From a virus (Duplodnaviria > Heunggongvirae > Uroviricota > Caudoviricetes), in the IMG/VR virus record IMGVR_UViG_2728369393_000007: a stretch of 64,000 bases of DNA, one strand, 5' to 3'. Of the stretch, positions 21,001-24,000 are shown in pieces. The stretch's first letter is position 1; each line of letters starts with the position of its first letter. The position numbers were made by a program.

Positions 21001-24000
21001 CAGCCTGAAACCGGCATACAGCAACAACCCGGCCTGGTGCCTGTGGGACATGCTGACTCACCCGCGCTACGGCATGGGAAAACGTCTGGTGGCGGCGGAT
21101 GTTGACAAGTGGGCGCTGTATGCCATCGGGCAGTACTGCGACCAGACGGTCCCGGATGGTTTCAGGGGCACAGAGCCGCGGATGACCTTTAATGCGTACC
21201 TGTCACAACAGCGTAAGGCGTGGGACGTTCTCAGTGATTTCTGCTCGGCGATGCGCTGTATGCCGGTATGGAACGGCCAGACGCTGACGTTCGTTCAGGA
21301 CCGCCCGTCGGATGTGGTGTGGCCGTACACCAACTGCGATGTGGTGGTGGATGATAACGGCGTGGGGTTTCGCTACAGCTTCAGCGCCCTGAAGGACCGC
21401 CACACGGCGGTGGAGGTGAATTACACCGACCCGCAGAACGGCTGGCAGACCTCCACTGAACTGGTGGAAGACCCGGAAGCCATACTGCGCTACGGACGCA
21501 ATCTGCTGAAGATGGATGCGTTCGGCTGTACCAGTCGCGGTCAGGCTCATCGTGCCGGACTGTGGGTGATAAAGACCGAACTGCTGGAAACGCAGACGGT
21601 GGATTTCACGCTCGGTCACAGGGGCTGCGTCACACACCCGGTGACATTATTGAAATCTGTGATAACGACTATGCCGGGACCATGACCGGCGGACGTATCC
21701 TGTCCATCGATGCCGCCAGCCGCACCCTGACACTGGACCGTGAGGTGACCCTGCCGGAGACAGGTGCCGCCACGGTGAACCTGATTAACGGCAGCGGTAA
21801 GCCGGTGAGCGTGGCCATCACTGCACACCCCGCGCCGGACCGGATACAGGTCAGCACCCTGCCTGATGGTGTGGAGACATACGGTGTATGGGGACTCTCC
21901 CTGCCGTCACTGCGTCGTCGCCTGTTCCGCTGTGTCTCCATCCGGGAAAACACGGACGGCACCTTTGCCATCACGGCGGTGCAGCACGTACCGGAAAAGG
22001 AAGCCATCGTGGATAACGGGGCCAGCTTTGAGCCGCAGTCAGGCACCCTGAACAGCGTCATCCCTCCGGCAGTGCAGCACCTGACGGTGGAGGTGAGCGC
22101 AGCTGACGGTCAGTATCTGGCGCAGGCGAAATGGGACACGCCGCGGGTGGTGAAGGGTGTGCGCTTCAGCCTGCGCCTGACCAGCGGAAGCGGAGAAGAC
22201 AGCCGTCTGGTGACCACCGCCATCACCGCGGATACAGAGCACCGTTTCAGCGGTCTGCCGCCGGGGAATACACCCTGACGGTCAGGGCGATTAACAGTTA
22301 TGGCCAGCAGGGCGAACCGGCCACCACCACGTTCAGGATTTACGCACCTGCGGCACCCGCCTCGATTGAGCTGACGCCGGGTATTTTCAGATAACGGCGG
22401 TCCCGCGTCTTGCGGTGTATGACCCGACGGTACAGTTTGAATTCTGGTTCTCAGAAAAACGCATCACGAACACGGCACAGGTGGAAACCTCTGCCCGTTA
22501 TCTGGGTAGCGGCAGTCAGTGGAGTGTATCCGGCCCGCACATTAAGCCCGGGAAGGATTTCTGGTTTTACGTGCGCAGCGTCAACCTGGTGGGGAAATCT
22601 GCGTTTGTGGAAGCCAGTGGCCGGGCCAGCAATGATGCAGAAGGGTATCTGGGGCTGTTTCGGGAAAAAATAGGAAAACTGCATCTGGCTCAGGGGCTGT
22701 GGGAGCTGATAGACAACAGCCAGCTTGCGGATGAGATGGCGGAGATGAAGACCACCATCACCGAAACCCGCAATGAAATCACACAGACGGTCAGTAAAAC
22801 GCTGGAAGACCAGAGCGCCACCATTCAGCAGATACAGCGCGTGCAGTCAGGCAGAAGAGAACGCTGCAAATGCTGACACTTCAGCAGGGGATGCATCGGA
22901 GTCAGCCCGGCAGGCGGCAGAAAGTGCAGCCTCAGCAAAGCAGTCAGAGGAGGCGTCCTCGTCCTCGGCCTCTGAGGCCGCTCAAAAAGCCAGTGAGTCA
23001 TCACAAAGTGCAGCAGAAGCTGAATTGTCAAGAAAGACGGCAGAAAGTGCAGCCGGTAATGCAGCCAGGGATGCAACGACCGCAGCAGAAAAAGCCCGGG
23101 AGTCAGCAGAAAGCGCACAGTCAGCGGAACAAAGCAGGATAGCGGCGGAAGAAGCCGTAAACAGAATCCCCACAGTGGTGGGGCCACCCGGGCCAAAGGG
23201 AGAACCGGGGCCCGCGGGTCCTCAGGGGCCGAAGGGAGATAAAGGAGAGCGGGGAGAGACCGGGCTGACAGGAAATGCAGGTCCACAGGGTCCAAAGGGA
23301 GATACCGGTGCGGCAGGCCCGGCAGGCCCACAGGGACCGAAAGGAGAAACAGGTGCGGCTGGCCCGGTGGGGGCAACCGGACCTCAGGGGCCGAAAGGCG
23401 ACCCGGGGGAGACACAAATACGGTTCCGTCTGGGGCCGGGAAACATTATTGAGACAAACAGCAATGGCTGGTTCCCGGATACAGATGGCGCACTCATCAC
23501 CGGACTGACCTTTCTTGACCCCAAAGATGCCACACGGGTTCAGGGTTTTTTTCAGCATTTGCAGGTCAGGTTTGGTGACGGGCCGTGGCAGGATGTCAAG
23601 GGGCTGGATGAAGTGGGCAGTGATACAGGCAGAACAGGAGAATGACATGAATATTTTGAGAAAGCTTATGGAGCGTCTGTGTGGTTGCGAAAAGCATGAT
23701 GACCGTGAAAACGGGGAGTTACTTACAGCACAACTGCGACTGGGACCGGCAGACATTCTGGAGTCCGATGAGAATGGCATTATCCCGGAGCAGGACAGGG
23801 TAATCACGCAGGTGGTGATACTGGATGCGGATAAAAAGCAGATACAGTGCGTGGTAAGACCGCTGCAAATCCTGCGTGCTGACGGGAGGTGGGAAAATAT
23901 TGGCGGAATGAAATAGCCGACAGCTTCACAAAACCGGAGTCCGGCTCCGGTTTTTGTTGTCATGTATAGGGGATATTTGTTATTAGAGTGTGAAGTAATA

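Follow-up and report, generated by a model that had tools for sequence, protein, structure and literature searches.

Why do two homologous side-tail-fibre genes on one stretch of viral DNA differ by about thirty codons in their collagen-like tracts, and does the difference have any consequence? The question is raised by IMG/VR record IMGVR_UViG_2728369393_000007 (Duplodnaviria; Heunggongvirae; Uroviricota; Caudoviricetes), of which a stretch of 64,000 nucleotides (nt), hereafter the window, was analysed. Within it, one locus in prophage 1 (copy 1) and one in prophage 2 (copy 2) encode a run of Gly-X-Y triplets, and by domain order and sequence both belong to EPclA, the family of Stf-type side-tail-fibre genes with collagen-like tracts found in lambdoid prophages of enterohaemorrhagic and enteropathogenic Escherichia coli (EHEC and EPEC). 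A first-pass annotation had described the two as tail-fibre paralogues with recombination-prone repeats, the copy in prophage 2 being roughly 30 codons longer. The 30-codon difference is very probably a true allelic polymorphism in collagen-stalk length that came with each prophage and was not made between the two copies, since unrelated strains carry these alleles too.

The loci were found by a scan for open reading frames (ORFs) and in the raw sequence, and repeats were counted as Gly-X-Y triplets in translation. Both comprise an Ala/Ser/Glu-rich low-complexity region, a Gly-X-Y run and a conserved C-terminal domain, after which an ORF of 89 amino acids (aa) follows, all on the plus strand, as are the J remnant, the deletion junction and lom described below. 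The collagen-like domain of copy 1 (23181-23414) holds 26 uninterrupted triplets (78 aa), and that of copy 2 (61761-62082), read with two absent G bases put back, holds 36 triplets (108 aa). In pairwise alignment, the two copies are 92% identical in DNA overall and are separated by a single large gap of 90 nt, that is, 30 codons or 10 triplets. The extra 90 nt of copy 2, which have no counterpart in copy 1, lie at 61830-61919 (alignment columns 472-561), and the junction of the gap in copy 1 is placed at 23250/23251 by both pairwise and multiple alignment. The excess noted at first sight is therefore exactly 30 codons after correction of the indels, and the limits first given for the repeats (23160-23410 and 61790-62070) are about 30 nt or less off the true domain boundaries. 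Since the Pfam Collagen model (PF01391) matches both copies, with E values of 1e-17 for copy 2 and 6e-15 for copy 1, the repeat is not a chance feature. The 90-nt indel was not revealed by Tandem Repeats Finder, which reported only short periodicities of 9 and 45 nt in the collagen (Col) tract.

Long ORFs on the minus strand (22825-23415, 23121-24005 and 61701-62201) were considered and rejected as genes because the plus-strand frame has strong Pfam support; they are the stop-free reverse frames expected of a GC-rich GGN-CCN-NNN repeat.

In the window as it stands, the triplet run of copy 2 is split over three frames, with 4 + 34 triplets visible, because two G runs each carry a 1-nt deletion. 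At 61796, GGG is reduced to GG, and at 62074, where the Col domain ends, GGGGG is reduced to GGGG; RefSeq has the extra G in both places. The full-length gene, of the EPclA type with the domain order PfN-PCoil-Col-PfC, spans 61011-62313 according to Pfam and the RefSeq sister genome of E. coli CFSAN004176 (NZ_CP014583.1), in which its equivalent is intact, 434 aa long and annotated as a 'prophage tail fiber N-terminal domain-containing protein'. Over the roughly 62 kilobases (kb) aligned to this near-identical genome, the closest to the window among RefSeq complete genomes, none of which is identical to it, the window shows one substitution, 52 single-base deletions, 10 single-base insertions and one 9-nt insertion at 11491-11499. 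The 52 deletions lie nearly all in G/C runs and are densest at 52600-57200, reaching about 4 per kb in the 52.6-57 kb interval. The late genes are fragmented by homopolymer indels of this kind, among them J in both prophages, the tape measure gene, L, K and others, and wherever a window deletion falls in J or the fibre gene, it disrupts a reading frame that CFSAN004176 has intact. This strain and its sister CFSAN004177 (EHEC O145:H25) were themselves sequenced by PacBio RS II with P4/C2 chemistry only and assembled with HGAP3/Quiver (Lorenz et al. 2017, PMC5567499).

Judged on this pattern, the frameshifts of copy 2 are in all likelihood homopolymer consensus errors of PacBio sequencing. If the deletions were real instead, the source strain would have copy 2 only as a true pseudogene, leaving no functional fibre gene of the EPclA type in the window. 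The frameshifts are after all present in the window as given, the prophage is defective (PMC5567499), so that selection for the gene would be weak, and the genome used for comparison is probably a sister isolate and not the same one. However, a single substitution beside 52 single-base deletions, nearly all of them in runs of G or C, over about 62 kb does not resemble a biological mutation spectrum and matches PacBio RS-era consensus error, each deletion in J and the fibre gene disrupts an ORF intact in CFSAN004176, and three RefSeq genomes carry the copy 2 allele without them, so a real origin is unlikely. Besides CFSAN004176, these are PV0838 and 08_4358, which match the 1598-nt copy 2 span over its full length and keep both G bases. 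Because the indel pattern fits consensus error, pseudogene calls in the window are unreliable; false frameshifts from deletions in G/C homopolymers affect J, the fibre gene and other late genes, and such calls need polishing first.

Could the 90-nt difference then be a product of the same assembly, through collapse or expansion of the collagen tract in one of two similar prophage copies? The consensus problems of the window, with two of the 52 homopolymer deletions inside the copy 2 collagen tract, would make this conceivable, as would a 906 base-pair (bp) inverted segment and a differing junction at about 50.76 kb relative to RefSeq. Nevertheless, the arrangement of 26 and 36 triplets is base-for-base identical in CFSAN004176, an indel of 90 nt is far below PacBio read length and has unique flanks, and a 30-residue difference between copies was already present in the Sanger-finished genome of O157 Sakai (Ghosh et al. 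2012, PLoS One 7:e37872, PMC3368898). Both alleles are also found in intact genes of unrelated strains that other groups sequenced, so the length difference is not an assembly artefact. An artefact, which the first-pass annotation had named as one outcome that would overturn its observation, is therefore extremely improbable.

The relation between the two lengths is seen in an alignment of Col-coding DNA from five sequences, namely EDL933 (37 triplets), CFSAN004176 copy 2 (36), window copy 2, OkiPb01691 (26) and window copy 1 (26). Set against the 37-triplet allele, that with 26 triplets is without 99 nt (11 triplets) bounded by two 9-nt GGGAGAGCG direct repeats, which in protein turns GDKGER...GDRGER into GDKGER, and of the tandem 9-nt pair GGGGAGAGC GGGGAGAGA the allele with 36 triplets keeps a single unit; the net of the two indels is 99 - 9 = 90 nt. 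The 26-triplet allele with the identical junction forms an intact 404-aa gene in OkiPb01691, a bovine strain from Okinawa, just as the 36-triplet allele is intact as a 434-aa coding sequence in CFSAN004176. When E. coli genomes were searched with the Col domain, 718 of 5426 were positive, with a median of 9 copies per positive genome, and 37 triplets were by far the commonest among the best matches (span 533 vs 524). This search gave the best place per record, and within-genome variation was accordingly taken from Tables 2 and 3 of Ghosh et al. and from individual loci. Among Stx-phage records, 37 triplets were likewise commonest, and variants of 27 and 38 triplets were present.

These alleles suggest a simple history in which both lengths would descend from the 37-triplet allele. 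The lineage of copy 1 would have lost 99 nt between the GGGAGAGCG direct repeats, and that of copy 2 one 9-nt GGGGAGAGC/GGGGAGAGA unit, by replication slippage or by unequal recombination between short direct repeats, which would shorten the stalk and keep the frame. Deletion between short direct repeats appears to be the most economical mechanism, and the frame survives because the repeats keep in step with the 9-nt periodicity, a multiple of three. A diversity-generating or phase-variable mechanism was also considered and set aside, as the 9-nt unit is present just twice and unrelated strains show the same stable alleles.

The alternative that the difference is recent and strain-specific, produced in situ by unequal recombination or gene conversion between the co-resident copies, draws on the distribution of identity along the two genes. 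The 3' half of the collagen tract and PfC (23290-23649) are nearly identical, with 60/60 matches in several 60-nt windows, and identity per 60-nt window is about 92-98% in PCoil and about 78-97% in the downstream ORF, a profile compatible with gene conversion. Conservation of Col-PfC above 90% is, however, general across EPclA copies (PMC3368898). Moreover, the 26-triplet allele is found with the same junction, intact, in the unrelated Okinawa bovine strain, a Col of 78 aa is listed for ECO26_0887 of O26:H11 (PMC3368898), and the two separate indels of 99 and 9 nt relative to the 37-triplet allele do not reduce to a single reciprocal event, all of which makes an origin in situ quite improbable. 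The earlier description of the repeats as recombination-prone is thus borne out as far as the indel ends in short direct repeats and Col lengths vary in threes (PMC3368898), and not as regards exchange between these two copies in place.

Several points weigh against the interpretation put forward here, of the polymorphism and of the frameshifts alike. The sequencing-error origin of the copy 2 frameshifts was deduced from a comparison of assembled genomes, and with CFSAN004176 probably a sister isolate, genuine deletions are conceivable. Whether the indels were deletions from 37 triplets or insertions was judged by allele frequency and not by a rooted phylogeny. In addition, the present data tie stalk length neither to host range nor to adsorption, and PMC3368898 offers no link to host range.

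The EPclA architecture PfN-PCoil-Col-PfC was defined on prophages of O157:H7 (Ghosh et al. 2012, PMC3368898), in which PfN serves tail attachment, the low-complexity region forms a coiled coil, (Gly-X-Y)n the triple-helical stalk, and PfC acts in trimerisation at the distal end. The experimental portion of that report describes recombinant O157:H7 EPclA as a thermally stable trimer with a collagen triple helix, and EPclA was put forward there as a phage side-tail protein. Copy 2, in its RefSeq-corrected form of 434 aa, shares 98% amino-acid identity with EPclA of EDL933, by which a trimeric collagen triple helix may be predicted for it as well. Its PfN matches the Pfam model phage_tail_N (PF08400) at residues 1-133 with an E value of 3e-69, and residues 1-93 match the 'Tail fiber protein' chain of PDB entry 9e7m. 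PCoil, at residues 134-250 (117 aa; about 116 aa in the family), is rich in A/S/E/Q, aligns 1:1 with that of EDL933 EPclA and is a putative coiled coil. PfC (Phage_fiber_C, PF06820) was matched at residues 360-423 with an E value of 2e-34 in copy 2 and with 3e-35 in copy 1, the two PfC domains differing by two residues only. The motif GP(Q/P)-GPK-G(D/E) occurs six times in copy 2 and five times in copy 1, each of which has a single uninterrupted Col domain, and the PHROGs matches of the fibre are tail fibre families.

Comparison with known fibres supports this placement. The domain order, the motif and the variation of Col length in threes are shared with EPclA members such as ECs2717 of O157:H7 Sakai and the Z-numbered copies of EDL933, as is the genomic position 3' of J and lom and 5' of a PfC-only ORF and the effector genes of the type III secretion system (T3SS). 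EPclA members have PfN, whereas copy 1 is truncated and lacks it. Lambda Stf (P03764) shares about 90% identity with copy 2 over its first ~116 residues (PfN, PF08400), and its gene occupies the same position after J and lom, but lambda Stf has neither a collagen-like nor a PfC domain, and its distal part and Tfa chaperone are unrelated to the Col-PfC module. The EPclB fibres of the Stx2 phages 933W and VT2-Sakai share the Col-PfC module (about 94% over residues 249-434), although they have two collagen domains, while the window copies have one each.

Variation in Col length is already known in this family, having been tabulated in 2012 together with 30-residue differences within one genome. 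A genome carries several EPclA copies, more than 90% identical to one another, whose Col lengths vary in multiples of three residues (PMC3368898). In that compilation, most copies in O157 Sakai are 437 aa long with a Col of 111 aa, those of Sp11 and Sp12 are 407 aa with a Col of 81 aa, and in O26:H11, ECO26_0887 is 404 aa with a Col of 78 aa and ECO26_1634 440 aa with a Col of 114 aa. Because Sakai is listed there with both 111 and 81 aa, the 30-residue difference within a genome has been published, and the comparison with O157 prophage fibres that the first-pass annotation had proposed recovers the same 30 residues. The lengths found here, 108 and 78 aa, are each one triplet apart from the commonest O157 lengths, 111 and 81 aa.

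The two loci, though homologous, are not equivalent as the word paralogues had implied, given that copy 2 is frameshifted twice in the window and copy 1 is a 5'-truncated remnant. The EPclA-type pseudogene of copy 1 spans 22847-23645 and consists of a partial PCoil, Col and PfC. Fibre homology starts abruptly at 22844, and the homology to J of prophage 1 runs up to 22846, so that the deletion junction lies at 22844-22846 with a 3-nt CAG microhomology, as established by comparison with J and stf of copy 2. Their counterparts in prophage 2 are J up to 59410 and stf from 61424; about 2016 nt are missing from prophage 1 relative to prophage 2, comprising the C-terminus of J, lom and the first ~138 fibre codons with the whole of PfN. 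The alignment of copy 1 begins at S139 of the full-length protein, and PCoil is kept only from residue 139. In the 290-aa ORF that spans copy 1, Pfam detected Collagen and Phage_fiber_C only, and no phage_tail_N (PfN), and the RefSeq equivalent is annotated as a pseudogene 'missing N-terminus'. Because PfN is absent and homology begins at residue 139, copy 1 is only a remnant of an EPclA family member.

The remnant of J, the host specificity protein of prophage 1 (20753-22846), is truncated at both ends and is a RefSeq pseudogene labelled 'host specificity protein J, missing N- and C-terminus'. Three 1-nt homopolymer deletions in the window, at 21614, 22263 and 22379, disrupt it further, and in the ORF list the J-like ORFs are spread over several frames. 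The fusion of J to the fibre remnant is out of frame, and the J frame meets a stop at 22874-22876. To judge by its sequence, copy 1 is incapable of making a fibre, because the PfN domain for tail attachment is missing and the join to the truncated J is out of frame. It has only a very slight chance of a role through the 290-aa ORF (ATG at 22773; partial PCoil, Col and PfC), whether as a free collagen-like trimer or as a silent gene-conversion donor for stalk length among about 9 EPclA copies; were that so, the copy 1 cassette would be a reservoir of fibre-length variants for co-resident inducible phages.

Both prophages are defective. In prophage 1, IS600 lies in the terminase gene, the capsid and portal genes are frameshifted, the C40 peptidase gene is truncated and the integrase is pseudogenised. 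Prophage 2, in the window, is without stx2 and without packaging, head and lysis genes, which agrees with the published description of CFSAN004177_P01 (PMC5567499); this 'Stx2-like' prophage P01 lies at yciE and has no stx2, and P01 of both sister strains is without packaging, tail and lysis genes. The window therefore probably derives from CFSAN004177 or an equivalent assembly. With a collagen rise of 2.88 Å per residue (PMC3368898), 30 residues would lengthen the stalk by about 8.6 nm, from 22.5 to 31 nm. No consequence of the length difference is demonstrable in this genome, because copy 1 is a PfN-less remnant in a decayed prophage and copy 2 lies in a defective one. The first interpretation is thus partly supported, and since the difference concerns a dead gene fragment and a gene of a defective prophage, it has slight importance outside annotation quality; the caveat about assembly quality in this region is the sole useful new point.

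The gene order at copy 2 is J (to 60253), lom (60322-60945), the fibre gene (61011-62313), a PfC-only ORF and nleC, lom encoding an Ail/Lom outer-membrane protein (PF06316, E 6e-50; RefSeq). The context of copy 1 is the same, minus the J C-terminus, lom and the 5' part of the fibre gene. In each case, an intact 89-aa PfC-only ORF that resembles the fibre C-terminus starts 1 nt past the fibre stop. The one 3' of copy 2 (62315-62584) matches PF06820 with an E value of 4e-34 and the tail fiber protein family PHROG 576 and corresponds to WP_044861268.1, and the one 3' of copy 1 (23647-23916) matches PF06820 with an E value of 1e-36 and is the RefSeq coding sequence WP_069357656.1. This ORF might act as a chaperone, as an adaptor or as an alternative distal tip. 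Two further fragments of about 135 nt, about 90% identical to the PfC-only ORF, lie at 24620-24753 and 28126-28265 among T3SS effector genes, which by RefSeq annotation are nleA (25160-26482, minus strand) and then nleH1-2, nleF, nleG and espM1. They resemble scars left by repeated recombination at a locus where effectors are exchanged.

Further observations concern the structure of the prophages. At about 50762-52607 of the window, a truncated ORF for a DNA methyltransferase (50145-50798) directly abuts tail genes (V/G/T/tape measure), and at the counterpart of this position CFSAN004176 has 5.5 kb with three tRNAs, a disrupted stx2A, stx2B and a holin. The 906-bp segment, at 48277-49182, consists of one 301-aa ORF of the DUF968 family on the minus strand and is inverted relative to CFSAN004176 at 100% identity; the inversion could be real between sister strains or an assembly artefact. 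Moreover, GTCATGCAGTTAATGTGACGG (36404-36424) has two mismatches to the 21-bp 'attB in PPompW' of Nakamura et al. 2021 (PMC8112680), with a chance expectation of 0, and lies just left of the position of the prophage 2 integrase gene, as placed by offset from the RefSeq annotation. The site suggests that prophage 2 may be integrated inside prophage 1, as a prophage-in-prophage at ompW, and not in tandem. Finally, a cluster of three tRNAs at 2210-2450, 3' of the Q antiterminator region of prophage 1, was assigned by ARAGORN to Met-CAT, Lys-TTT and Arg-TCT, and RefSeq has Ile and Arg at its counterpart.

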